Source: Cyanophora paradoxa CCMP329
Lineage: Eukaryota > Plantae > Glaucophyta
Direction: 5' to 3'
DNA length: 19,342 nucleotides
NCBI GenBank assembly: GCA_004431415.1
Contig: QPMI01000528.1
Location: 1 to 19,342 of the forward strand
The number at the start of each line of letters is the position of its first letter. The first letter of the stretch is position 1. Positions 1-19,342 of the stretch are shown here, piece by piece. The notes under the pieces were generated by a model that worked only from the letters and a program-made list of their open reading frames with translations, was not told the origin of the DNA and made no database searches. Position numbers and translations under genes: made by a program.

Positions 1-3000
1 GGCTGTTCCCGTATACAAATCCGTTGGAATTGTGTATTCAATCCATATATTGTTATTGAATGTATCAGCTATTTGATCACCACTTCATTTTATAAGCATA
101 TCCACCGTAGTTATAGTACGGCTCCCATGCCCACCCTGTTCCAAAACCCCAATTTCCTGTTATGAGTGTGGGGTGTGTCCGGAAACCGTAGCATCGAATT
201 CTACACATCGGGGCATAGTTTTGTCGCCAAACTTATAATTTGTAGTAGCATTAATTGACCCTCCATTAATAATTGTTCCACTGAGAGTGGGTGCGCTCAC
301 AGTATTATTTACCCAAAGGTTTCCATTGTTATAAGACTTTAAAATGGCCGCATCTGCTGAGTTTCTAAATTCATTGACACACCTTCACTATTCCCATAAC
401 CCCGTATGTATGTGGTATTACCATTTCCAAACCAAAACCTCGGAATGTTATCTGTTGATTTGTGCCAATCCACAGAATTCACTGTCAATAAACTACCTAA
501 TGAATAAGATGCTTCTGCCTTTGTTGCGTAAGTTGCTGCAAAATCCGGTTTACTAAACACATTATCCCAACTTATCAAACCAACATCATTATCGGTTGCT
601 CTCTGACGACTCCAACCAAAAACCCCTGTGAGATGAATGCGACCTTTTCGACCTTGAACATATATCTTTGTGTAGAACTCGCAATTGACAGATATGAAGA
701 GTATACCTGATTGGGTTCCATCATGAGCTGATGCTTGAATACCTTGATAGACATTCACACGTCGAAGGAAATGCTGGTTGTTATTGGCTGTTTGGCCGTA
801 AATGTCAAAGTATCTGCAATTGCCCCAACACATAGTCTGAATGTAGAAGGTTTTCATTCCTGTTGGAACAGCCCATCGCATCCAATACCCACTACAATCT
901 TCATCATTTTGTGGTGTAGTGTAGCATCCTGCTTGTCCTGTTCTCGGTGACCAACCAGTTGTCCAATTACCACTATTGTCAGAAGAAATAGCAGCCAATT
1001 GGTCAAAATCGTATCCTTTTGGTATTGCTGTCCCAACTATTTGAAGATTAGACGCATTCAAAGTCCCATCAATTGTTCCTCCTGTCTTTGGAAGATAGCT
1101 ACCCAGCCACCCTTGAACTACATTAGAGGATGTGAGATTTTGAGTACTGCTTGTAATGTCTACTGCTGCTATCCAGCTTTGAACTACATTACTACTGGGC
1201 AAAGGCTCAATTAGAGTTTGAACAGTTGACATATCGGCCTTGGGAGCCAACCAGCCTTGAACTACATTTGAAGCCGTTAAAGGGGCTATTAAAATATTAA
1301 CTGTTGCTGTATCTGCTTTTGGAGCCAACCAGTCTTGAATTACATTCGAAGTTGGGATATTTGGCAAGGACACATTACTGCTCACTGTGAGATTATCAAC
1401 TACTACATTTGAGGATATTTGGATATGCTCTTTTATATTGTATTGAGGGGTTAGTTGAGGCACACCAAGACCTGCTACCCCGTACTTTTGAGATAGATAG
1501 TATCGCACACAAGCCAATTCATCGGCAGACAATGCTCTATTATACACTACTATTTCCGCAAGGTCACAATCCATTCGTCCGGTTCCAAGCCAATTCATTA
1601 TTCGTGTGGGGTCATCGGTTCCAAGATAGTTACCATTGAAGGTTGCACGATTGACACCATTCATAGCAACAGTTGTGGTGGACGGCGATACCACCCAATC
1701 AAAAATACTCCACACGTCTTTATAAGAAGAGTCAAGAGTTGTTAATTGCCAAGTTCCAACACCATTAATTCTTACGTTAACTCCAATTGAGAAACACTAT
1801 ATGAACCGTAATTAATATTGTGGTTATAGTTGTTTGAGTAAATACTCCAATGGTGGAGCCAAGAAGTACCTGTTGGTCTGCGAACGGAAATAATGTGAGT
1901 CCATTGCTGAAAAACGTGATAGGTGTAGAAGGATTTATCATAAATTCAGCCGTTCCTTGTTTGAGAACCTTATAGGAATTCAGCAGGTCGGTAGAGTGAA
2001 TCTTGGCTAAAGTGTAACCAGTTGCTGGTCCTATGAGGGTTCAAGAGCATTTGGTAGCCCTGCCGCGAAGTTAACCATCTGCGAAACCACTGCTCAGTAG
2101 CTTCAGTAGTAGGGTACAATGAAAGATACAATTTGGAATCGATAGGGGTTCAACCAGTTGGCAACGAGATTTGAGTTGGAATTTGAGTAATATGTGTGAT
2201 TACCTTGATCGATTGGTTGTTCATTATTATGGATTTGCTATTAACATTTCCATTTACTGTAAGATTTGTCGAGATTGTTCCCCAGTCAATGGAAGACACC
2301 ACCAACCAAATTATTCACAGTTGTTGTTTCCGCCTTTGAAGCCAACCAGCCTTGGACAACATTGGAAGCTGTAAGAGGGGCTATTTGAGTGTTACAGTTG
2401 TGGTGTTTGCTTTGCCAGACAACCAGCCTTGTACCACATTAGATGATGTCAGTGAGCTATTTGGGTGTTGACTGTGATTGTATCTGCCTTTGGAGCAATC
2501 CACCCCTGAACTACATTTGATGATGTGAGTGGAGCAATTAAAGTATTCACAGTAGCTGTATCAGCCTTTGAGCTAGCCATCCCTCAACTACATTTGAGGC
2601 TGTCAGTGGAGCTATCATTGTTTCAACAGTAGCTGTGTCAGCCTTTGGAGCAAGCCATCCCTGAACTGTGTTTGATGATGTAAGAGGGGCAATAAGACCT
2701 TCAACAGTACTTAAATCAGTCTTGGGAGCAATCCATCCCTGAACTACATTTGAGGCTGTCAGTGGAGCTATCATTGTTTCAACAGTAGCTGTATCAGCCT
2801 TCGGAACAAGCCACCCTGAACTGTGTTTGATGATGTAAGAGGGGCAATAAGACCTTCAACAGTACTTAAATCAGCCTTGGGAGCAAGCCATCCCTGAACT
2901 ACATTTGAGGCTGTCAGTGGAGCTATCATTGTTTCAACAGTAGCTGTATCAGCCTTCGGAACAAGCCACCCCTGAACTGTGTTTGATGATGTAAGAGGGG

Positions 3001-6000
3001 CAATAAGACCTTCACAGTACTTAAATCACCTTGGAGCAATCCATCCCTGAACTACATTCGAGGCTGTCAATGGAGCTATCATTGTTTCAACAGTAGCTGT
3101 ATCAGCCTTCGGAACAAGCCACCCCTGAACTGTGTTTGATGATGTAAGAGGGGCAATAAGACCTTCAACAGTACTTAAATCAGCCTTGGGAGCAAGCCAT
3201 CCCTGAACTACATTTGAGGCTGTCAGTGGAGCTATCATTGTTTCAACAGTAGCTGTATCAGCCTTCGGAACAAGCCACCCTGAACTGTGTTTGATGATGT
3301 AAGAGGGCAATAAGACCTTCAACAGTACTTAAATCAGCCTTGGGAGCAATCCATCCCTGAACTACATTCGAGGCTGTCAATGGAGCTATCATTGTTTCAA
3401 CAGTAGCTGTATCAGCTTCGGAACAAGCCACCCCTGAACTGTGTTTGATGATGTAAGAGGGCAATAAGACTTCACAGTACTTAAATCAGCCTTGGGAGAA
3501 GCCATCCCTGAACTACATTTGAGGCTGTCAGTGGAGCTATCATTGTTTCAACAGTAGCTGTATCAGCCTTCGGAACAAGCCACCCTGAACTGTGTTTGAT
3601 GATGTAAGAGGGGCAATAAGACCTTCACAGTACTTAAATCAGCCTTGGGAGCAATCCATCCCTGAACTACATTCGAGGCTGTCAATGGAGCTATCATTGT
3701 TTCAACAGTAGTGTATCAGCCTTCGGACAAGCCACCCCTGAACTGTGTTTGATGATGTAAGAGGGGCATAAGACCTTCACAGTACTTAAATCAGCCTTGG
3801 AGCAAGCCATCCTGAACTATGTTTGATGATGTGAGAGGGGCAATTAGACCTTCAACACTATTAAATCGGCTGGGAGCCAGCCAGTCCATTACTATATTGC
3901 TTGTGGGAATATTGGGAAGCGAAACATTTGAGTTCACAGTGAGATTTTCAATGACAACGTTGGATGAAGGAAGGTAAAGGTACTCTCTCACAAGGTGGCT
4001 GAGTGACGAGAAATCCATACTTCTGCTGGATGTGATACCTGACTGTCTGCTTCTCTTCTGCTGATAATGCCCTTTTGAAACAATTGTTTCTGCATGGTGT
4101 CCCCAATAGGGTGGGGTGACGTACTAAGGTTCCCTGGGAGGAAGGTAGTCGCCTTCAAAACTCCCACATCTGTCCCATGAATGCTATAACCAAATTAGTG
4201 CTGGAACAGTAACATCATAGTATCCATGCCTGTAATCCTGTGGAGACTGTTAAAATTGCAGTACCAGAGCCACGTGTATTTCCATTGAAAAGATTTTCAT
4301 GTAATCCAATATCATCATTTGGCTCTCTGAATCATATGCCAGAATCCCAATCTTGTAGCTTGTTGGAGTAATGGGGTCTGCGTCTTTGATTCCCCAAAAT
4401 CCAAAGTGGAACGTGGGTCTCGCTACAACAAACACTGTCAATCCTGCTGAAAATTCAACAGTGGTCAATGGAGTGGTGTAGGAGATGTTAGTGCCACTAA
4501 CATAAGCTTCCCCAAGAATATCCACGGTTGTATTAATGGATAAATCAGGTGACGATAGACGCTCAGTGTGGAAGAAACTTGATTGTATATGTTTGTGCTG
4601 TTGTTGCCAAGTTGGTGGAGGCTTCCATTTCCAGAAACAATTCGGGATCTGGGATGGAATATCTGTTTCTCCTGTTACTTGGTAATATTCCTCGTAGGTT
4701 GGCGAAATTATTTGATCCAATGTCTTCTCAGTCTTTGCCCTACTGTTGGAACTGATACACTTGCTGCTTGAATGGATCCTGTCACTCTCAATCGCGATGC
4801 ATTAATACAAGTTTACTATTGTCTTTAGGAAGTGTTTGAATATTCACAGGAAATCCGTAGAAGAGCTGAAGGTACCACCTTAAATTCTGTAGGTCTGTCT
4901 GGTTCAAAGCTTTGCATAGAAAGCATTTGACTGAAAGAAAAGTAAGATGAATCACCAGTCCCCACATCTATGTATTCCACTTGATTACTTGGTAGCTTGA
5001 ATTTGCTGTAACAGTGAAAGTTCCCCTTGTGACACCATTAACACCAACAGAGACTGTTGTAGAAGTGATGGTGATATCATATAGAGTATATTTGGTCCAT
5101 TCCTCTAATGTTATTCGTACTTTACTGATGAGTCTGAGCTGATGCTGGCATAGGTACCATCATTCTTAGTGACATATAGGTATAGCTCGGTGTAGGGGAG
5201 ATACTATACAGTCTGCTGACTGTCCATGTTTCATTATTGTCAAGAGAAGTGAATCGAAGGATGCCTTCATGTGTTCACTTGGAATGGCGCCAGAGCTGTT
5301 GCCACAAATACATGGTAACTCTTGTGTGAAATCTATGGTCGCATATGAACCAGTAACGGGACGTACCATATACTGATGCGGCCAACCACATTTGGCTCAA
5401 ATCCATATGCAGGTTTGCTGTTGATTTCGTTCACAGTTGCTAAATATTTGAAAGACGATGAAATTCCAATAAGGTAATAATGAAATTGTTATAACCACCA
5501 CATAGTTCCTTTCGCAAAGTTGTCCATAAGCCAAATGGTGGCATTATTGGTTTTTGTCCTTGTTTCCTTACTGGCATTAAAGTAAAGAAGGCATTCGCTA
5601 ATGCTCAGTGGGTCAAACACATTGAAGTCAATGGGTTCTGTCATAAGATATGTGGAACCATCATTAGTTTCTCTGTAATATTAAGGTTTCCGCTTATAGT
5701 TCCTCCTGTCAATGGCAGGTAGCCTGCCAGCCAACCCTTTGTGACATTGGAAGTGGTAAATCTGCCAGCCAGCCTTTTACACATTCGAGTCAGCAGATGC
5801 ATTGGTCAGCCCTCTAATAACATTTGATGTCCAAGGCTCCGTGGCTACGGCTTCCTTTCTCAAATAAATACTTGAGGCTCCAATTGTATTGGCAACCAAA
5901 GGAACATCGAACTCTGCTGCTTCAGAGGATATATAGGCAGCTGTTTTTCCGGCATACACATTCTGCATATAATCTGTTGGGTGAATAAACACATTCGAGC

Positions 6001-6251
6001 AGAATTGGAATGCAAAGCCACCCTCTGCGTTGAGTTCAAGGTTCGAAAGACTGTACCATCCAGAGCATCTATGTAGCCTGTCCTTGATCATGTCATATAA
6101 ATGCCAAACTCATGATAAGCATCATTCCAGAGATTTGAGTGACCTCTATATGGGGAACATACTTGAGCAGCAAGCTGGTTATTGTGGGATGGAATAGCAG
6201 GATCCTCTACTAAATATGTGTCAATGGCAATCGAGTTGTAATGGAGGTCAT
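1..6251 (-). CDS. Giant modular fibre/adhesin-like virion protein (about 2,000+ aa, frameshifted, 3' end outside the window); could be more than one gene
   Basis: ATG at 6251 after AT-rich TTATAAA. Three LamG/ConA-like domain ends: SQMLFYAKALNQTDLQNLRWYLQLFYG (~4850-4945), AETIVFKRALSAEEKQTVRYHIQQKYG (~4015-4110), LAEIVVYNRALSADELACVRYYLSQKYG (~1480-1570). Three fibre motifs of type (Y/C)LP(L/K)TGGTI (~5700-5725, ~2280-2300, ~1075-1100). 26-aa stalk repeats. Motif WHKSTDNIPRFWFGNGNTTYIRG near 400-470. Confidence 0.72.
1100..1410 (-). repeat. Short degenerate second block of the same 26-aa repeat (about 3-4 units) with its leader segment
   Basis: ORF 339..1715 contains SSNVVVDNLTVSSNVSLPNIPTSNVIQDWLAPKADTATVNILIAPLTASNVVQGWLAPKADMSTV. 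The leader matches SSNVVIENLTVNSNVSLPNIPTSNIVMDWLAP at ~3870-3965. Confidence 0.93.
2330..3875 (-). repeat. Coding tandem repeat of about 20 x 78 nt (26 aa) with alternating A and B units
   Basis: A = PKADTATVETMIAPLTASNVVQGW(L/I)A, 8 near-identical copies. B = PKADLSTVEGLIAPLTSSNTVQGWL(V/A), 8 near-identical copies. Degenerate units occur at both edges. Confidence 0.97.
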
Positions 6252-9200
6252 TTTATAATTAAGCTTCTATAAATTATTTGGAATTGTTTCATCCTTACTT
6301 GCTCTACCTTCCTTCTTGCAATCTCTTTCATGAACTGTGCATCCCTGATGGTGCCTTGTTTTTGGGTCCTCTGCCATTTCGTATAATTGAGCCTGTGGTA
6401 CCTCAGCCCAGTAGCTTGACAGCAACAGCCCAGCTGCTGTTTCAGTGACAGTTGCCGAGGTTGTTGCAAATGCTGACCTGCAGCAATCACGAATCTCAAA
6501 ATATATAGACCGCATACAAAGCTCCAGCCCCACCAGCTAGCGAGCCTATAACGATACCAACTATGCGACCTATATCTGGACCCCCGGTTGGTTGGTCAGT
6601 CGTTTTAGGTGTTTCTTTTGAGGGTGGATTATCTGGATTGGTTGGGGTGTCTGTTGGATCGGGTTCATCTTTTGGGTTGGTTGGGTCAGTGGGTCCACTG
6701 TGCCACCTTCAGCAGTGAATGGCTGGGTGTAACGTTTTAAAGACAATAGGTGCATCTGCTGCCCCTCTGGTTGCGCTTCCTGATATTGTGCATACTTGGA
6801 CTGCAGGTAATTGAAAAGGGCTGTAGACACGGTGGATGGGCAATCCATGGCATACCCAAACATTGCAAGTGGTGTCATATGTGCTGTTGTTCACCAAGCT
6901 GGCAGTGGGGTTGCTGAAAAGCTCTGCAGGAGACCATTTCGAGACAGCAGTCTTGTTCCTTCATTTGCGAATCCACCCTCGTAGAATTTATTGGCGGATA
7001 ATGTGTTCTGTACATAAATATTGCAGCTGCTCCACATTCCCAGGGGCAGAGTTGTATTGGGTGTGTACCTATCTCGCAATGTAAATGTCAGTGTCCATTC
7101 AAAGTCTGTTTGGATATACCTATTTTGATTTTTGGTTGCTAATGTTCTGTGGATCCATTGAACGTGAAAGAATTAAAGAAGCTGTCAAATGTGTTGTTTT
7201 TGTAATCGTAATAATCATCAGGCCATCTGTGGAGGACTGGAGGGTGAAAAGTCCTTCCAGTTCACATTCATAAATTGATTGGCATCAATGTCACCCTTGG
7301 GTACGACATGTTAAACTCTCTGATTGGTAAGGTACAAACGCAGCCCATTTCTTGTCATAAAGGTAGCCATACTTCACTGGATTCTCTGATTTGTAGTGGT
7401 AAGGAACTTTTACGGTAATTGTCTGTTCTCTCTGAGCAAAAGTACTGCCTACCACAAGGTTCTGGGTGCGGAGATTATCAGGATTAAGGTCAAATAATTG
7501 CTGGTGTTGGTGATATTTGTGGTGAACACTGTGTTTCCACCGGATTGCCCAAAGACTGCCCCATTGATTGTTTTGACAAAGAGAGCATCTGTGTCAACTG
7601 GATAAGTGATCCGAAGGCGATCCTCTGGAGTGTATTGAGCTACATTGCCCACTGCTGTCCAGCGATTGTGTAAGGAGGGGTGCCTTGATTGAAATACAAA
7701 CCTGCAGGGTACAAATTTATGTCTTGGTGAGTGTGGTTGTGCCACCGATGTGAATCCTGTATTTGTCACATTAGTCACACTAAAAGGGGATGTGGTTGTT
7801 GTAGCAGGAATAGGTTATTCCATTCACAATTGTTGCTTTGAAGTATGTATTTGTATCTTGTAAAGTACTGTGGGGGCTGATAGGAATGGGGTGGCAAAAG
7901 TAATATTATACACATGGGGAGGGGTGCCATTCACTCTGTATTGATTGTTCATATTATAGCTCTGTAGATCAGCATAACCAAATTGCTTCGATCCTGTTTG
8001 GGATAAATTGCTTGACCTTTCAGATTGTGGTATGAGATGCTTGGAGTTGTATCCGCCAAAAAACTGTTTACAGAGCTGATAGTGGATAGGTTAGTTTTGG
8101 TCATAAGATTTTGTTTGTGTTCACATTGCTGGAGTACACACTCTGCCAGTTGCTGGATGCTGATCCTAGAGTGCGGCTCTGATCTTGGGGAAGATACTGC
8201 TGCCGGATATTGCTATTTATTTTGATGTAGGGTTCTCCGTATATTGGAACATTATGTACAGCAGTTACATTAAATTTGAATGTGGCAGAATTTGTACTTT
8301 AGTGATTGGGGTTACCATTTCAGGCATGGGCATGTTGAAGTCACATCAATCCTGTCATTGTAACATTGTTATGTATGCCTGATCGTTGATAACAGTGTTT
8401 GTTTGATCAAGTAATCTGTCAAATCGAATATCGTGGCAGTTGGAAGCTCGGCTGGATCCGTAATACCAATTCAGCCCATGTAAAGGAATAGGTTGGAGGG
8501 GGAAGGTAAGCTACCATGTAGATACGAGGATTTGAGTGGTGGCAGTTTCAGTCTTCGTAAAACTCTTGTGTTCGTATGGTTTGGGTTCCAATCTTCCCAT
8601 CGAAAGTAATTGTAGCTTTTGAATCTGCATTGTTGATGAGAGTCAGGCTATTAAAATTTGCTTTGTTGCATTACTTCCATCCACCTGAGATTGGAAAGAC
8701 CAATTCTATACTTATTATCGGTTGCTGGGTAATGTTCTCTTTGCAAAATGCTTGCAATGTGATCGCAAGAACTCCATCTGCAGCGAATAAAGTATTGATC
8801 TCGGATGCAGGGCTGCAATCTCGGTGCTGTGGGCAGTGAGGTGGTGTCCTGGCTCGTATCTTTCGTATTTTTGGCTAGCTTGAAGTTCAAAAACTCTTTC
8901 ACAATATCCTCTCCCAGCAGATTGTTTATGTTCTCCTTGTGATATGCAAATGCCCAGTTCGAAGCGCTTGCTTTTCTGTGTTGAATACTGGATCTCCTCT
9001 GCCATCGATATGGTGGTTTTATCCAGGGCGATCGATCGAACCACTGGAGCATTTGAGCCAATCGCTCCCACCAATTCTCCATCCTGGTAAATCTCCAGCA
9101 TGGGCTTTGTTGAATCTGCAGTGAAGGTCCCTCTGCAATTGGTGGAACATAGCTGCCATCCTTGATTACGAATCTATTTACTGAAATATTAGAAGTCAAA

Positions 9201-9714
9201 GGTTGCTTGTCGATAATGTTCCTGCCTTGATTGTGTTCACTTCCAGGTTGCTCGTAAAAAATTGCTCGTGAAAGATCGTGGGCTATTTCAACCTTTGTCT
9301 TTCGATTTGATACACCAGCAATTAGGGTGCTATTATCGAAATTCGAAGGGCTGCATTCTGGTGACCCGTTTCATCCTGGACAAAGAATTCAATCGACCCT
9401 ATCGAAGGACTTGGGTATGTTCCTTCGATTGTATTTAACTGTTTTGGGTATCTGGCGAGTTGCTTGGATGCTTGCAACCTATTCCGCTCGTTATCATCGA
9501 GCAGAAAATCGATTCCAATTTATTATCTCCTGGCTCAACATTTACCAGCTGCAATGCGGCCGGTCTGCTGGGTGTTCCACTAATGGATCCTCGATCCCAT
9601 TGAATTCAATTCTCAACGACCCTCTGATCTCTGGGTTTACCAGATCAATCGGCTCTTTCTCAGGGACTGAACTTTAGCCTGCGGAATATCCGGTCGTGGA
9701 TTCAAAAACGACAT
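6248..9714 (-). CDS. Large fibre-like protein (about 1,150 aa, frameshifted) with a C-terminal P/T/D stalk, transmembrane-like helix and short tail
   Basis: ATG at 9714 (MSFLNPRPDIPQ). Two fibre-type motifs: HYPATDNKYRIGLSNLRWMEV (~8670-8735) and YLPQDQSRTLGSASSNWQRVY (~8135-8200). LamG-like end ALFNYLQSKYA (~6790-6825). Stalk DPTDPTNPKDEPDPTDTPTNPDNPP followed by IVGIVIGSLAGGAGALYAVYIFLRFVIAAG (~6478-6564). The stop is either TGA at 6248 (ATGA overlap with the next gene) or TAG at 6267. Continuity across the gene depends on indel correction. Confidence 0.6.
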
Positions 9715-9735
9715 ATCTAATAATATTATGTTTAT

Positions 9736-10139
9736 TTATTGTAAGGAGTTTGTAGGGAACCTTTGCATTACTTGCATGTCCCACTTTTGAACGTTTAATT
9801 TTTCTTTGAGAATGGCATCAATATCGTGAGCTATTCCCATTGTTTTCAGCTGGGCGTCCTTTCCACAGGTAAATATGTCCAGAGCAGCAGACCCGATCAC
9901 TGTATGAGTGAGCAGTCACATGCGATTCATCCAGCAAAAAGCCAATCGCAATCCGGGGGCTGACCGATCCATCGAACACACAGGATTTCTTGTGGACTAT
10001 ACGAATCCCATTCGTCTTAATGGCAAGATCCAATGCAAGGGTGACCCATTCCGCAAACTCCTCTGGGGTCTCCTTGACTGGGTCGGTGATATAATCCAGA
10101 AAACGTGGTAGCTTGATATTTTAAGCAATTCAGATCCAT
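9736..10139 (-). CDS. speD: S-adenosylmethionine decarboxylase proenzyme (short pyruvoyl-dependent SpeD/SpeH type, about 135 aa), frameshifted
   Basis: Joined frames read MDLNCLKYQATHVFLDYITDPVKETPEEFAEWVTLALDLAIKTNGIRIVHKKSCVFDGSVSP..AIGFLLDESHVTAHSYSDRG..ALDIFTCGKDAQLKTMGIAHDIDAILKEKLNVQKWDMQVMQRFPTNSLQ*. This has the N-terminal HxxxD, the E/SH self-cleavage site (9920-9928, intact in ORF 9818..10033) and the DxFTCG motif characteristic of AdoMetDC. Confidence 0.88.
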
Positions 10140-10170
10140 TATTATAATGACAGGGAAATTTTTGTAATGT

Positions 10171-11641
10171 ATGGTAAATGAAAGCATCCTGGCATTGAGT
10201 GGTGGGGGTTCTCGAGGAATTATTGAGGCTGCATACTGGCCCAGATTGAAGCTCAAACAGGAAAACGAATCAGCAGCTGTTCGATGTTTTTTGCGGGAAC
10301 ATCCACAGGTGGATTATTGCGCTTCTATTAAATATCAAGCCCCTGATGGCAGTCCGAAATACACTGCCACCGATATTCTGGCTCTCTATAAGTCGAAGCT
10401 TCGCAGATATTTGCAAACCCGAGAGTTCTCTCGTCAATTGTGCAGAGACCCCAAATATGAAGCCACCAATCTGGAGGCTGTTGCCCTGGAACTTTGCGGA
10501 TCCGCAACAATGGCTGATTTATACAAACCGACTGTGGTGACTGCATTTGATACAGTTCTGATGTCTCCGGTATTTATTACCAGCAACGATGAGGAGATCA
10601 ATGGAATGCTGGTTCGAGATGCTGCAAGGGCTACTTCGGCTGCCCCAACCTATTTCGAACCCAAACAGGTCACAGTCGCTGGGAGAACATACTGTTTAAT
10701 CGATGGCTGCATGAGCGGAAATAATTCTCCCGGTGTCTGTGGCTACACATTTGCAAGGAAACTGTATGGGAATTCGTGTGAGGAGGAATTCATAGTTGTC
10801 TCTGTGACTGCTGGTCACATTCAGGACTTGGACAAAGCCTCTGCCGGTTATTCCTATGATACTATGAAGACCTGGGGGGTTGTTCAGTGGATCCTAGGTG
10901 CAAGTGGATCTCCCATTTGAGCATGCTGCTGGAATCGAGCGATCTGAATGCCACGAAAAGCTGCTGGAATTACTACCCAGAAACGATGATCAGAACTACG
11001 ATCGCTATTATAAGCTGAGTGTTCCTCTGCCCCAAAACAAGATGGTCCTCGATAATATTACCACGAGCCACCTCAATTCCTTGAAAACGAAGCTCTCAGC
11101 TTTGTTTCGGCCCAGCAAACTTATTTCAATGCTATGTATTCCATTCTGACCATGAACATGACAGAAGGGGATGTTCCCATTCAGAATCTCAGTGGCTGTA
11201 CCGATCTGGCAGCCCCTCCAGAGTCCAATTGGGTTCCTTTGGAGAACAGTGCTTTTTCCGCTGATTTTGGAACTGCTTCGAATGCTCGTGGTCAATGCTA
11301 CAGGCTGGGTAGGATTCCCAAATCCCCCACAGGGACAAGATCAGGAGGGAATTTCCTTCGAATCGATTTCCCTCGTTTATTCATGCTTTCCTCTATAAAA
11401 ATGAAACCTGCTGCCAATGGCAACTATATTAAAACGTTTGAGATCGATTATCAAGCCACTCCTGGTGTATCATCTTTATCTCCCTACACTGAAGGTGGCT
11501 CAACGAGAGTGTTTACAAATACTGCTGGTGAAAACGAGCATGTTTCTCGCAATCCCAAGGCCATTCGAACCCTGCTTGTTTGGCCCTCACCACAGAGGGA
11601 GCCTCTGCATGCAGAATTGATTCGAGGGCTATTACGCTTAA
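10171..11641 (+). CDS. Patatin-like phospholipase fused to a C-terminal F5/8 type C (discoidin) domain, frameshifted
   Basis: ILALSGGGSRG oxyanion motif. FDVFAGTSTGG nucleophile elbow in the alternate frame (~10280-10313). ARATSAAPTYFEP. Catalytic Asp in LIDGC. After a 1-bp fix near 11085 the frame runs without a stop into ORF 11134 (FLRIDFP, NYIKTFEIDY, RVFTN, ..ACRIDFEGYYA*), a discoidin-like pattern. The true start may be ATG 10178 (MKSILALSGGG). Confidence 0.88.
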
Positions 11642-12477
11642 TCAATGAGCAGCTCCAGCTGGAATGAGTAAGAGAGTCCATTTAGATCCGCAATGTCCCC
11701 TCTCCATTTTCTGAGCGAGATTGTGAGCTTATCTAGGTCCAAAGGGTTGTGACATTCACGAAGGGAACACTCGAGCTAGGCTCACTGTAAAACGAATATT
11801 TACCAAAATCGGAATTCATTTGGATCCTTAGTAAATAGGAATCATCCGCAGGATTTTGCCTGCTAGTTGCTGCATTGAATTTCATAAATGTCTAAGCTCC
11901 TCTACATCTAAGTAAATGTAAGCCAGTGCATTAAAGTCGATCATTTTGGGGCAAACCAGTTGGTATCGGTCTTCAATTCCTGGTACATTATTGGTCTTGC
12001 TTCGGTTGTGCTTTGGTAGATAGTATCTGGTTCAATGCCAATACAGTCACAGAGTTCCGATCTGAGCTTTGAATTGTGAATTGATTGCTGGGCGATGTGA
12101 ATACAAGACGACTCATCCCTACATCTAAGAGAACTTTATATGCCTCAATTCCAAGCGGTTGAAAGTGCCCCACTAATCCCAGAATAGAATCTGTTCCCAA
12201 CGAAATATCTAGTGGAATCCTTCTCCTTCAGAATTAAGAGTATAATAATCGTTGATACTTGGGACAGGATCCAGAAAATGAAAGGCTGGAATGCTCAGGG
12301 GTTGATCGCTGCCAAGGGCAGTGATTGTGAGTTTCTGGTCCGGTGGAACAACATAGCAGCTGTTGGGATTTCCGCTGAGAGGATTCGGAATTTCCTTATA
12401 TTGCTGATGCGATTTTTGAGATGCAGAACCCCATCTTCGAGATCCCTGCTGTCGCAATTTATCGTGATTCTTTTCAT
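11638..12477 (-). CDS. Minor capsid (penton-like, single jelly-roll) protein, paralogue 2, frameshifted
   Basis: N-terminus MKRITINCDSRD..LKNRISNIRKFRILSAEIP; middle IDFNALAYIYLDVEEL; C-terminus LDKLTISLRKWRGDIADLNGLSYSFQLELLID*. These match the DSR..., YxYLxIxEL and LxxLxIxLxxxxGxxxDxNGxxxSFxLE motifs of PLV/NCLDV minor capsid proteins. Confidence 0.8.
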
Positions 12478-12493
12478 ACTTTATAATAGTAAG
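12478..12493. promoter_or_regulatory. 16-bp AT-rich spacer between divergent penton genes (candidate bidirectional promoter core)
   Basis: CAT-ACTTTATAATAGTAAG-ATG. Confidence 0.5.
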
Positions 12494-13400
12494 ATGAAAG
12501 AATATCTAAGCTTCTCTAGCGATGAGCGAGACCCCGATTACACAGAACCGAACAGCTATGTAATTACCTTACCCAGGCGTTACGATAATGTAAAATCGGT
12601 TCGGCTCGTTCAGGCAACAGTTCCCAATGTCATTTCAATGTGTCCAAAGATATGATAAAACTGGAGCAGATGTGAATCGAATGGACATCTATTTTTCGGT
12701 CACATCCGCTGATTCAGGCTTTATTACCATAACATTCCCAAAGCCCACTACACAAAAGATTCTGTGGCGGAGAAGATAACAGAACTACTCGAGGCCGCTC
12801 GGTCTCAAGTTTTGGAGGCATCTATATAAATGCCGGTACAATCATACTGTAAAATGCTATGAATTTTTCAGTAATGCTAATTTCTGGTTCCGATTCACAC
12901 TTGCTTCAGCTGATTCTCTCAAGCAATCCCGATTCAGGTCCACTGTAAATCGAAAACTCCAGTTCTTTGGTTTTAATCGATCATTGCCTATTCCGGTGAA
13001 CTGTTTACTCCTCCTGCCTCGGATACATTCTTAGTCTCTGGTGGCATCACACTGAATAGACGCATTCGAGGCTTCACAGTGGAGATGAAACACCAGAAAT
13101 CCATGCTCTGGCTCTACATCGATGAATTTGCTCCATTTATCCGGTCAGTTAATAAATATGTGGATGGCTACTTCATGAGAATCCCGATCCCTCAAGAGCT
13201 TGAGCATGGATCAATTTACCATTTCGATACATCAGTTACTGTCCCCTTGTCCGAGAATTTAGAGAATTAAGTCGTTTGATCGCTTGACAATCAAACTTAT
13301 TGATCACGATGGGAAGCTTCTCGATTTTGGAGCCTGGCAGCATTATTTCACCTTCGAAATCGAAACCTACGATGCCCCTCCGCAAATGAATTTCTATTGA
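12494..13400 (+). CDS. Minor capsid (penton-like) protein, paralogue 1, frameshifted
   Basis: MKEYLSFSSDERDPDYTEPNSYVITLPRRYDNVKSVRLVQATVPN; IPKAHYTKDSVAEKITELL; LWLYIDEF..YFMRIP; C-terminus DRLTIKLIDHDGKLLDFGAWQHYFTFEIETYDAPPQMNFY* (TGA 13398-13400). Lies directly upstream of the MCP. Confidence 0.85.
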
Positions 13401-13453
13401 TTCGCTAAATTATTTTCTACTGCGAAAGTAGAGACTAACCCGCTCACTTCACC

Positions 13454-14770
13454 ATGGAAACAAATTCGCAATTCCAGCGCCAACCTCAAGTCTATGCTTA
13501 CAACCGATGATTACAAGGATTTCTTCTAAACAAATCCTTGTCATCGGTACCTCTTCAGGAACCAAGCCCCTTCGAGTCCAGGTTGCTCCAGATACCGAGC
13601 CTTCCAATGCCCTTGGCAACCGAGTCGTTTTCAAGATCCCTCGCTACCATTTCCTCAATGCATAGCCCTTCAACTCGATCTGAACCCAATGGTGTTCGGT
13701 GAAAGCAACCTTTCAGGAGGCAATGCTGCTGCCTCTACTGGTTACCTCCGTGTAATCGGTTCGCTCATCAAGCGCATGGAGATTTCCCATGGTGCTTTCC
13801 GCTATGTTGTCCCAGAGGATTTCGTCACCCAATATTTCCTTCTCACAACCGAGACTGGTGATTTAGACAGACGCCTTCGTTATGTTGGTGGAGTAGTAGG
13901 AACTAACTATCATGGCAATACAAACGGTGGAACCTATGAGATCGATCTGCCTTCACCCTTTGAGAAGGCTATGTTCCCACTTTGCGCTATGAACTCTGAG
14001 ATAGTTGTTGAAATGAGTTCAGAATGTAACTGATGGTATTATTGAAGACACAGATGGCAAACAGACATTGCAATTGCTGGAAGCTCTCTCAAAGTCCTCA
14101 AGCCCAGACTTGTCTGCAAGGTTGTCAATGCTGATGAAGCGGTTGTATCTGAAACAATTGCCAGAGTCAAATCCACTGGCATTGCCATCCCCTATAATGA
14201 GATTGGCTTCCTTCACACTGATTTCACCCCTACTGCCTCTGGCGCTCGTGTCAACCTTTCTCAGCTTACAGGCGCTGGTTTTAATCCACACTCTTGCATT
14301 CTCAGTTCGACACTCGCTAAAGTGCGAACTAATAATGGATCTGCATCAGTCCTTCGTCCAACTGCGCTTCGTACCAATGCTGTCAATTTCTATGTTGAGC
14401 TGAACAACAATCGCCTCTACTCCAACACTGAACTACCTCTTTTGGTCGCTTCATCGGAACTCCAAGATAAATATGGCGCTGCTCTCTCTGCTGATGACTT
14501 GGCTTTTCCTGCTCTTTCAGGTATCTCTTCGGTGCTGGCAATGGCAAAGCTGCCCTCCTTAACCAGGAGCAAACAGGCTATGTTGATGCCACAGGAACAT
14601 CAGCCTTTGATATTGTGTTTGGATTCAATGCAATTACTGCCGCAGGTGATCCTGGTAACACCGAATGGTACGCAGGCGGAAGCTATCAAAAAATGTACCT
14701 CCAATGCATGGCTCTCGCTCACAATATCCTCATTGTTGGAGCCGATGGTATTCGTCGCGTCAGTGCTTAA
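13454..14770 (+). CDS. Double jelly-roll major capsid protein (about 440 aa), frameshifted
   Basis: RVQVAPDTEPSNALGNRVVFKIPRYHFLN; LIKRMEISHG; YEIDLPSPFEKAMFPLCAMNSEIVVEM; FYVELNNNRLYS; C-terminus YLQCMALAHNILIVGADGIRRVSA* (TAA 14768-14770). These resemble the FxIPR, LPxxF..PLxA..EI and YNxLxI motifs of DJR MCPs. It sits between the penton and the ATPase. Confidence 0.85.
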
Positions 14771-14820
14771 ACTGATGACCAGAGTCAGTCTTATTTTTCT
14801 CTCGTTTTTATAGTGAAAAC

Positions 14821-15662
14821 ATGTCCGAACTAGAAGAGTTTGATGCCTTCTCCATGATAGAACCCCCTTTCAGGGCAATCTTCATTGGGCGCTCCAACAC
14901 TGGTAAATCAGAAGCTTGTCTGTACTGGATTAAACAGCTTCACGATGCAAAAAAGATCGATGCCGTAATTGTGGTGACTGGTACAAAGTTCAATAATTTC
15001 TGGAATCCAGTCACCCCAATGGTACTCGATGGCTGGATCCCGTTTTCATACGCAAGCTGCTGGATGCAAGGCAGCAAAAGATTGCTGCAGGCGGAAAAGT
15101 GAATGAGTTATTAATTGTTTTGGATGATTTGATCGACAATGAGCATGTGGATCTCCATAAAGATAAAATGATTGCATCCCTGTACACGAGGGTCGCCATT
15201 CCCATATAAGCATCATGGTTATTACCAAAAAATGCGAAAGCTTTCCAGTACAATTCGAGTGAACACTGAGTACACTTGCATTCTCAATGCCAGCAATCGC
15301 TTGGAGCTGCTCGCAATCGAGGAAGAATATAACACAGGTCCAAAGATGATTTCTTCAAGCTTTTCAAGGAGTATGTGCATTCTTATCAGTACCTTGTGGT
15401 TTCTTCCGCTGGGTATGATACATCCATGTATGTAGATAAAGCAACACTGGTGAGGGACTTCAATTCCCGAGGTTCCACAAGGGGGTGCAATTGTATGAGG
15501 AAAAGAAACGCAAGGCAAAAGAGGGTGAAGCCCAAAAAGAACCAACTTGCAAGGATTCAAAAACAATTTGCAAAACTTTGTCGAAATTTGAACAAGAGCT
15601 TGAAGTATTCCGATCTTTCCCAAATTTCGCCAAAACAAAAAGAAAATGTTGCTAAAAGTTAA
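14821..15662 (+). CDS. A32-like (FtsK-HerA superfamily) genome packaging ATPase, frameshifted; C-terminal end uncertain
   Basis: Walker A GRSNTGKS (14887-14910), Walker B LLIVLDD (~15108-15128), LYTRGRH arginine motif (~15180-15199), ISIMVITQ and IRVNTEY motifs, all in canonical order after 1-bp corrections. Confidence 0.93.
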
Positions 15663-17592: not shown

Positions 17593-17742
17593 ACCGATTA
17601 ATCGGTTTTGTATCGTGGGGAGAAAATTTGATTTGTCCCGTGGGGACCAAAAAATGACTTAAGGAAAAGCCACATAGGTTAATTAACGAAAGGGGGAATT
17701 TACCCTATCTGGCAAAAATATTTTCTTGGCATAAAGTAAACA
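17593..17742 (+). promoter_or_regulatory. Intergenic regulatory region before the pPolB-like gene
   Basis: Perfect palindrome ACCGATTAATCGGT (17593-17606), AAAATTTGATTT (~17623-17634), hairpin GTCCC-GTG-GGGAC (17635-17647), AAAAATGACTTAAG (17650-17663), TTTTCT-N7-AAGTAA (17721-17739). Confidence 0.5.
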
Positions 17743-19342
17743 ATGCTCGCGCAAGTTACAAGAGAAGAAAAACCTTGAAAGCGAAAGCGGTCGAATTGAT
17801 TAACCTCGGTATCCAGCGGAGCTGCTCACCAAGAGAACCGCTGATGCATTATTGCGCAAATTCTCAGGAACTTCCAAGGTTCCCGAAACCATGCTCGAGC
17901 TGTACCTCAAAACATTCAGTCAATTTTCGATACAGAGCGACCTGCAAGGATATACCCTGCAATCGCTGCTGGGGGTTCGCCAGGCTGCATTTGATCGAGA
18001 GGTCGGTCGCATTGGGGCCAATTGAGGCTGAACCTCCGAGACCCCGAGAGAACAGCAGCTGAATCAATTTTCCGGCAGATTGCCCAGTTTCCCGACGATG
18101 CTGTTTCCGGGTCACTTTCAAGCTCTGGCCGAAATTAATGCTGAACCCACTGGTCGTGCGAGGATCAGCCACTCCGCTTTGAAGGTCGCATGTACCGACC
18201 CCTAAAAAGGGCTTCGATCACAATTCCGTAAGGATGCTGCGACAATTGCCCGTGATGTTTCGTTACAAGGTTCGTGCTGAACCAGAGACACTATATGGTC
18301 GCTGATTTCCTGTATGTTGTTGAGACCGTATTTAGGCTGATCGACTTGCAAGCGAAATTCAGCATTGGTACGATTATTTTGCGGAAATTCACGAAATCGT
18401 TCTGGTGGAGGCTCAGGCTGAGGAGGAAGCCAGGAAGCCGTTCAAGAAGAATTTCTCGATGAGGAACTCGAAGAATCGATGCGATTGTACCGCAGCTGTG
18501 AGCCAGTACATTAATTACGATCTCAATCCCGAGGCGAAATCGATCGAGGAATTAATCATCAAGCCTGCTTCCGGAAAATCGAATGCCTGTGTCTACGATT
18601 ATGCTGATCTCATTGTACTCTCGTTCAATGGAAGCTTGTCACAGAAACAGGAAGTACAAGGACATTGAGATGACCTACGAGGTCTGTATCGATTTTTCCA
18701 CGGAAAGGAATATACTGAGGGAGCCTCTATGTCCCTCACTCTGAGGCAGCTCCGAAAATTCGCGGATCGTTGCAGGCTGGGATTCCGTGTTTATTCGGAG
18801 GATAACAAGCTCAAGTACAGATACCCACAGGGAGAGATGCCCGTTAATAAGGATCTGCATCCGCAATGCATGAATTTCATGGTACACAATAACCACGTTT
18901 ACTGCTACAACGATAACATCAAAGCCCTCGAGAAGAATTTCAAGAAAATGGACCTGGAAACCGAAAACCCAACCGAAGCTTCGCTGAACTCATCCTATCA
19001 AATCACAGAGACCAAACAATACGATATGTTCGCCCACACACCTGCTGATCTGCTCAAGATTGCGACCATGGGATTGAAAGCTGATAAGGAGAAAGCTACA
19101 GTCCGAATCGTTTACACTGGGTCCATGGATGAGCTTCTGTTCACTTTCTTGGATCGCCTTCAATACGAACCAAAGCTCGGAATGAAAGGGGACAGATCAA
19201 AACCCTGATCTTCAAAGCGAGTGGAATATTCTTTTCCGTATTTAATCCCTCGGTTTCTGATCACATGGTACAGTGTGAGTTCGAGACTGAGGCTTACTAC
19301 AAAAAGGTCCAATCCATTCGTCAAGAATTCAAGGAAGCCCTG
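17743..19342 (+). CDS. Probable N-terminal part of a protein-primed DNA polymerase B or replication protein (terminal-protein and vOTU-like region), frameshifted, continuing beyond the window
   Basis: Long coding stretch from ATG 17743 to the window end. NACVYDY (~18582-18602) and FMVHNNHVYCYND..IKAL (~18875-18930) resemble the Cys and His motifs found upstream of the polymerase domains in PLV/polinton pPolBs. Exonuclease and polymerase motifs are not in the window. Confidence 0.55.

Follow-up and report, generated by a model that had tools for sequence, protein, structure and literature searches.

The locus and its surroundings

The window, by which we mean the whole 19,342-nt stretch of Cyanophora paradoxa DNA analysed here, carries on its minus strand a small gene for a predicted SpeD-fold pyruvoyl decarboxylase, placed head to head with a patatin-like phospholipase gene; likely capsid and packaging ATPase genes are found in the same window (Table 1). 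The motifs by which a sequence-only reading had recognized the gene (LLDESHVTAHSYSDR, HVFLD and DIFTCG) are present as claimed, across three frames, with HVF/LD at about 10110-10096, LLDESHVTAHSYSDR at 9937-9893 and LDIFTCG at 9882-9862. In the raw frame, the letters between the R and DIFTCG are partly out of frame, and the gene stops at 9734-9732, not at 9738-9736.

Table 1. Features of the decarboxylase gene and of the genes around it (window coordinates).
Feature	Position	Strand	Remarks
SpeD-fold pyruvoyl decarboxylase gene, predicted SpeDA (arginine) type	9732..10139	-	138 codons, X at assembly errors
Glu-Ser pair, predicted self-cleavage site	9923..9928	-	from sequence, residue roles in the available text of PMC10407285, and structure alignment
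His 79	9908..9910	-	5 residues past Ser 74; equivalent to T. maritima H68
Ser 82	9899..9901	-	at the Pro position of HTWPE-type AdoMetDCs; no substitution in run contigs
Cys 94 of FTCG	9865..9867	-	20 residues past Ser 74; equivalent to T. maritima C83
A/T spacer between the head-to-head ATGs of the decarboxylase and patatin genes	10140..10146	.	7 bp
Patatin-like phospholipase gene, divergent neighbour	10147..11149	+	fragmented, end approximate
Likely double jelly-roll major capsid protein gene	13432..14800	+	fragmented, limits approximate
Likely packaging ATPase gene, label inferred	14779..15435	+	fragmented; Walker A GRSNTGKS, Walker B-like LIVLDD

The gene is real in the organism and only looks broken. 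In sequencing runs X1, X2 and X20, single contigs cross the whole gene with 0 other letters; in X1 and X2 such a contig aligns to 9500-10400 with 23 gap letters and, again, 0 other letters. Relative to the window, all four runs compared over 9725-10160 (4/4) have nine letters more inside the gene, located where the frame jumps (near 10105, 9950, 9888 and 9750). Inserting X at these sites yields 138 open codons down to the stop, with the motifs and an intact catalytic triad in one frame, while X placed at random left the frame open 69 times in 5000 trials. Because short-read contigs run through the gene with no substitution and with extra letters at the jumps, the frame breaks stem from errors in an assembly that was not polished and are not the marks of a true pseudogene, which is ruled out by the open frame once the run-supported letters are restored; a chimeric segment is likewise ruled out, because single contigs from these runs match across the gene with 0 other letters.

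Of the 24 listed runs, 20 contain window positions 8500-14800 at 0.65-0.66 of its words; all bear a single organism label and stem from 17 named studies (2012-2024). The main variant of the gene has 0 substitutions in runs dated 2012 and 2024. Diverged versions also occur, namely a variant copy in X6 over 9892-10022 with 10 differences in 131 bases and a second version in X20 over 9906-9949 with 6 differences in 44 bases. Of the eight listed differences of the X6 variant, seven are silent, where a share of 0.235 would be expected (P=0.00025, or P=0.0024 if the two unlisted of the 10 differences are replacements, the test resting on one 131-bp variant with transition bias ignored), and this silent-site bias places the gene copies under selection. 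From its constant presence across runs and from the variants, we infer that the element is endogenous and multi-copy; because diverged versions coexist within the same runs, several element families or a host paralogue may be involved. In two of four runs (X4 and X12), an 85-base contig at 9931-9986 follows the gene for 59 letters and exits just before the cleavage codons, at a depth of 97-129 against 314-417 for the main contig. Where this contig departs from the gene, its letters have no counterpart in the rest of the window (the best alignment has 9 mismatches in 26), and it may represent a paralogue or a copy that has been interrupted. Such possibly interrupted copies would agree with the reading that the gene is decayed, or an inactive passenger, within an endogenous element that is silent; this is nevertheless most improbable in view of the open frame, the intact triad, the start signal, the silent-site bias and the main variant unchanged in 2012 and 2024.

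That start signal appears to be TATA-like and common to the decarboxylase and patatin genes, in the spacer between them; TATA-like A/T runs also stand directly before the ATGs at 6251 (-), 11401 (+), 12830 (+) and 88 (-). The lipase neighbour of the sequence-only reading is borne out by matches to PF01734 (Patatin, E=6.7e-11) and phrog_25573 (E=1.3e-20); its fibre label found no family match. A long low-complexity gene on the minus strand at 1400-3800, which may be fibre-like, contains many ~19-residue ASNVVQGWLAPKADTATV-like units, with a weak Laminin_G_3 match (E=0.005) at 342-1796. In the Atlas, the capsid piece is similar to clusters of double jelly-roll capsids, with feature scores of 0.97 to a Capsid_N cluster and 0.96 to a Preplasmiviricota cluster, at a recognition of 1787, under the 2300 mark; it had no match in Pfam, PHROG or NCBIfam and no relatives in the viral contigs or in the word-index search of longer proteins. 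The ATPase had no family-profile match, phage tblastn with an ATPase piece gave nothing useful, and no profile match to a minor capsid protein or a polymerase was found in the window. The region at 17658-19342, for which pPolB is a possible reading, had no informative family match. Terminal inverted repeats were absent from the 25 longest of the 119 repeat pairs in the window and no integration junctions were seen in it; the ends of the element probably lie outside. The element is likely a Polinton-like virus (PLV), so that the setting proposed earlier holds as PLV-like and is not proven, the capsid and ATPase genes having no profile match.

Family and predicted substrate of the enzyme

The protein is, by its sequence, a predicted class 1b SpeD-fold enzyme of the pyruvoyl type. 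The profile search suggested by the sequence-only reading came out divided: the raw C-terminal piece matches PF02675 at E=0.0017 and 19.1 bits, under the 25-bit cut-off, a score obtained on that raw piece, whereas all 11 scanned relatives (out of 17) pass. Raw pieces match, only weakly, TIGR03330 at E=0.071 and 0.00088 and phrog_3125 at E=0.0006. With the unjoined 70-residue middle piece, phmmer returned 18 matches among 1.84 billion proteins (best E=4.9e-15), 17 of which have in common the motif set G.H...D, SPPGF, LDESH..AH.Y and D.FTCG; P0003 was set aside as a spurious repeat protein. A profile of the 17 relatives matches the AdoMetDC structures 2III, 1VR7 and 1TLU (E=7e-14 to 3e-11), presumably Aquifex and Thermotoga entries. 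Through this alignment, the predicted pyruvoyl residue Ser 74 is equivalent to T. maritima S63, and in the X read-through the spacing of Ser74/His79/Cys94 equals that of S63/H68/C83, the conserved triad described in the available text of PMC10407285. Elsewhere, a PDB sequence search with raw pieces gave nothing significant (best E=0.38), the word-index protein search gave no match to the middle piece, the raw decarboxylase piece had no near relatives among the viral contigs and no usable match in the Atlas, and phage tblastn with the C-terminal piece gave nothing useful.

Within this fold, the protein is probably a self-cleaving pyruvoyl arginine decarboxylase (SpeDA), which would boost the supply of agmatine and putrescine. 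The sequence-only reading had named it an SpeD/SpeH AdoMetDC; the pyruvoyl class 1b fold stands, SAM as the substrate probably does not, and its caveat that some homologues use arginine or ornithine fits the SpeDA placement. The AdoMetDC label is probably wrong because the diagnostic proline is missing and both profile and tree favour the SpeDA side. According to the available text of PMC10407285, from whose description the window's Ser 82 was equated with that position, every true AdoMetDC has kept this proline, whereas SpeDA has lost it. It is present in 24 of 30 Thermoplasmatota loci (4 of the 30 being SpeDC-like) and in 7 of 8 phage references, and in 0 of 80 Poseidoniales-type genome loci. 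An exception to the rule is phiYS40 (L175, YP_874018.1), a validated AdoMetDC by the accessible account in PMC9992855, which lacks the Pro.

Against subfamily profiles built from 72 speB-X-speY, 33 HTWPE-type and 4 SpeDC-like proteins, the read-through scored 89.4, 38.8 and 8.7 bits, respectively, and the unjoined middle piece alone 49.1, 9.2 and -1.0 bits; the held-out phiYS40 AdoMetDC, as a control, scored 34.8 bits for speB-X-speY versus 69.6 for HTWPE. The raw C-terminal piece alone leans slightly towards HTWPE (13.2 versus 9.6 bits). Among 24 diagnostic columns, 14 are of the Poseidoniales type, 2 of the HTWPE type (one of them a gap) and 8 of neither, and the protein does not carry the TS..GHF signature of SpeDC-like loci; the positions of the SpeDC Gln/Thr/Phe/Tyr signature were taken from the text of PMC10407285 as available. 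The phylogeny that the sequence-only reading had called for places the window protein on the Poseidoniales side of a 100/100 split from the HTWPE group, in a 42-row tree; the long branches L175, L176, L177, L178, L088 and L089 were left out of it, as were numerous near-copies and the SpeDC-like rows. A placement within the HTWPE group was rejected (p-AU 0.0003), and one at the very base of the SpeDA side was not (p-AU 0.138). In an 81-row tree (quick version), the SpeDC-like rows form a separate group with support 100; the partial L085 is in neither tree. The link of these trees to SpeDA runs through taxon, gene order and the description in the available text of PMC10407285, as the assayed SpeDA proteins, DAC51064, AIF02979, XP_005856029 and KAG5182568 among them, are not among the rows.

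The window protein belongs to a subclade (96/87) that also holds a Chromulina protein as well as PQ-loop fusions; its nearest rows are only 43-45% identical to it and its branch is long (1.87). The gene likely entered the virus from a source of protist type. In P0006 and P0116 of this subclade, a PQ-loop membrane domain (Pfam) is fused to a SpeDA-type domain, and P0085 and P0174 are related. PQ-loop proteins include cationic amino-acid transporters, which would fit arginine.

The 17-relative profile found 486 loci in GTDB genomes, of which 80 were kept, with titles of Poseidoniales, Thermoplasmatota or an unnamed euryarchaeote. Nearly all of these (79/80) adjoin a deoxyhypusine-synthase-family gene, and 72 have both an agmatinase-family and a deoxyhypusine-synthase-family gene within 1.5 kb. 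In 80 metagenome loci, a deoxyhypusine-synthase-family neighbour was found at 76 and an agmatinase-family gene as well at 21, and the Pro at none. Poseidoniales-type draft genomes hold one PF02675 gene each (5/5) and a spermidine synthase in 0/5. As far as the available text of PMC10407285 goes, the SpeDA clade comprises Poseidoniales, Gimesia, Solirubrobacter, Nannochloropsis and Tribonema enzymes, all arginine-only and including some from two stramenopiles; two archaeal arginine-only proteins with the gene order speB-X-speY were assayed, the assayed members of the matching archaeal group fail to complement speD, and the matching enzymes work slowly, with a kcat/Km of 20-180 per M per s. The speY genes adjoining SpeDA act on agmatine, in the accessible part of PMC13625781.

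A true AdoMetDC, which would make decarboxylated SAM for a host spermidine synthase or serve as a SAM drain, is unlikely. The family matches bear that name, the accessible text of PMC9992855 reports two eukaryotic giant viruses with validated class 1b AdoMetDCs and phiYS40 acts on SAM without the Pro, but this reading has to meet the 39 versus 89 bits, the rejected HTWPE nesting, the failure of the archaeal proteins in the speD assay and the scores of four relatives against TIGR03330 (43.6-68.4 bits), all of them (4/4) below the 75.65 equivalog cut-off. The available texts of PMC9992855 and PMC10407285 describe repeated switches of substrate in the SpeD fold, with one true AdoMetDC inside an ODC clade. 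A shift to a different basic substrate once the virus had captured the gene, be it ornithine, lysine or arginine together with ornithine, is quite unlikely here: the low score to the SpeDC-like profile (of 4 sequences only) and the missing signature speak against it, while the long branch, the SpeDC-like virophage homologues described below and phage homologues with ornithine or dual activity (PMC9992855, in part) would suit it.

Proposed role and known systems

In the mechanism that we propose for an arginine decarboxylase, the 138-residue protein would cleave itself at Glu73-Ser74, giving a beta chain, an alpha chain and a pyruvoyl group, and the resulting enzyme would convert arginine to agmatine and would not produce decarboxylated SAM. 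During viral replication, host enzymes would turn agmatine into putrescine and then into spermidine or homospermidine, and these polyamines would aid translation via eIF5A hypusination and neutralise DNA during packaging. A cofactor-free enzyme of ~400 bp would suit a small genome, and a cofactor-free viral enzyme would bypass control over the host ornithine decarboxylase. Polyamine roles in virus replication and eIF5A hypusination are covered in the accessible text of PMC9992855. The step past agmatine would depend on the host, because the window, fragmented and perhaps only a part of the element, yielded no gene of the agmatinase family. Other polyamine partner genes were also absent from all 135 stop-to-stop frames of at least 60 aa (135/135), a weak negative as every window gene is fragmented; the absence of a spermidine synthase from the window, noted earlier, is confirmed within the same frames. 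Of the three roles that the sequence-only reading had offered, a polyamine boost remains in the version that runs via agmatine. SAM draining and aminopropyl supply fall because both need AdoMetDC activity, and they were rejected with the window protein on the SpeDA side. The meaning of the gene would then move from methyl-donor interference to polyamine supply.

The chemistry of SpeDA is also compatible with another purpose, whereby arginine depletion or agmatine build-up would hinder a co-infecting giant virus or host defence instead of feeding polyamine synthesis. We consider this rather unlikely; it draws on the lack of a downstream gene in the window and on the recurrence of the family in virophages, which are parasites of giant viruses, whereas the matching enzymes are slow and giant-virus contig L001 has the same subfamily, which suggests a replication benefit.

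Among known systems, the SpeDA clade shares with the window gene the SpeD fold, the Ser-His-Cys triad, the loss of the proline and the Poseidoniales speB-X-speY clade, in so far as the available text of PMC10407285 describes it; the window gene differs in being viral, in standing alone without speB or speY, in an identity of ~45% at best and in an activity that is predicted. Virus-borne class 1b pyruvoyl decarboxylases with a part in polyamine supply are described in the accessible text of PMC9992855, with true AdoMetDCs in S-PM2, phiYS40, P2559S and HaV01, an ADC in pelagiphage HTVC201P and ODCs in freshwater phages, but the examples it gives from eukaryotic viruses belong to giant viruses and are true AdoMetDCs, and PLVs are absent from that text. 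The arginine decarboxylase of Chlorovirus PBCV-1 resembles the predicted window enzyme in converting arginine to agmatine in a eukaryotic virus, and differs, again by the available part of PMC9992855, in being PLP-dependent, of unrelated fold, and an enzyme of a complete homospermidine pathway that a giant virus encodes. The present gene would add the smallest DNA viruses of protists to the phages and giant viruses that take part in polyamine metabolism with genes of their own. Proteins of 120-140 residues suit the existing E. coli assay, and the organism has been sequenced in at least 17 studies.

Prior record and spread among small viruses

The presence of the family in PLVs is already on record, and the novelty claimed for it by the sequence-only reading was overstated. 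Tables S1, S6 and S7 of PMC7805220 list PC_0120, 'S-adenosylmethionine decarboxylase', with 22 proteins in virophages and GKS2-group PLVs (VC_23 7/19, VC_32 2/7 and VC_80 2/5; virophage clusters 2/111, 1/7 and 5/68); the two GKS2 PLV clusters account for 7/19 and 2/7 genomes, beside three virophage clusters and one other, and the main text does not use the AdoMetDC term. PC_0120 is like the window gene in Pfam family and in class of small viruses, and unlike it in being tabulated only, with a conflicting HHpred label and no substrate call, the one sequence shown being SpeDC-like. Full-text searches turned up no paper joining PLVs with AdoMetDC or SAM decarboxylase, only unrelated matter on Polinton and polyamine, and no substrate call. 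The gene in PLVs goes unmentioned in the available texts of PMC11633385, PMC12803844 and PMC10120064 (its supplement included), and in those of bioRxiv 10.1101/2025.06.17.660233 and 10.64898/2026.05.28.728513, whose supplements may list it. What is new is that a substrate is proposed, that a copy which looks endogenous is under selection, that SpeDA-type genes are carried by 4 of the 80 contigs of a second, PLV-like clade, and that virophages have ornithine-type, SpeDC-like versions. PLV and virophage genes named SAM decarboxylase likely act on arginine or ornithine, which would correct the standing label.

The SpeDA-type subfamily was found in nine viral contigs. Four of them (L083, L086, L087 and L090; IMG/VR, 4-20 kb) belong to a second PLV-like clade, in which the SpeDA-type gene lies just upstream of an ATPase (Pox_A32, E=2.5e-14) and a capsid gene whose model matches double jelly-roll capsids (65-sequence fold, pLDDT 75; single-sequence pLDDT 32). 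On L087 the intact SpeDA-type gene occupies 3869-4243. A search for this clade found 111 loci and kept 80, of which 51 include at least 4 kb upstream of the capsid gene; SpeDA-type genes were present in 4/80, and the search for HTWPE-type genes in PLVs covered the same 80 loci. The window capsid pieces showed no similarity to the second-clade capsid. In the 42-row tree, the second-clade decarboxylase groups with a giant-virus copy (96/81), and a single origin of the window and second-clade genes was not rejected (p-AU 0.054); independent capture by the two is favoured by the best tree.

Ten virophage-like contigs (L296-L305, several of them near-copies) match the SpeDC-like motif, with Sputnik capsid domains on L298, L300 and L302, and the search that found them was seeded from a published virophage protein and is hence biased. 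Their eight complete proteins score 82-91 bits for SpeDC-like against 32-38 for HTWPE and 18-23 for SpeDA; on L298 the intact gene lies on the minus strand at 9859-10221. A scan of the viral contigs with the SpeDC-like alignment gave four loci, which were read as phage and set aside.

Tentatively, and judging it slightly more apt to fail than to hold, we suggest that small double jelly-roll eukaryotic viruses may have captured SpeD-fold decarboxylases at least twice, probably three times, and always for diamine supply: two PLV lineages unrelated to each other would have taken the arginine type and virophages the ornithine type, all of these genes being annotated as SAM decarboxylase. If true, putrescine supply would be a recurring bottleneck that even viruses of 20-30 kb spend a gene on lifting, and the present element would exemplify a pyruvoyl arginine decarboxylase of a eukaryotic virus in a copy that is endogenous and under selection.

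SpeDA-type genes also occur on two giant-virus-like contigs (L001 and L085) and on a phage-like contig (L082), where the gene groups with a Poseidoniales-type sequence. On second-clade contig L090, a SET-domain gene lies at 645-1010 (E=3.3e-8).
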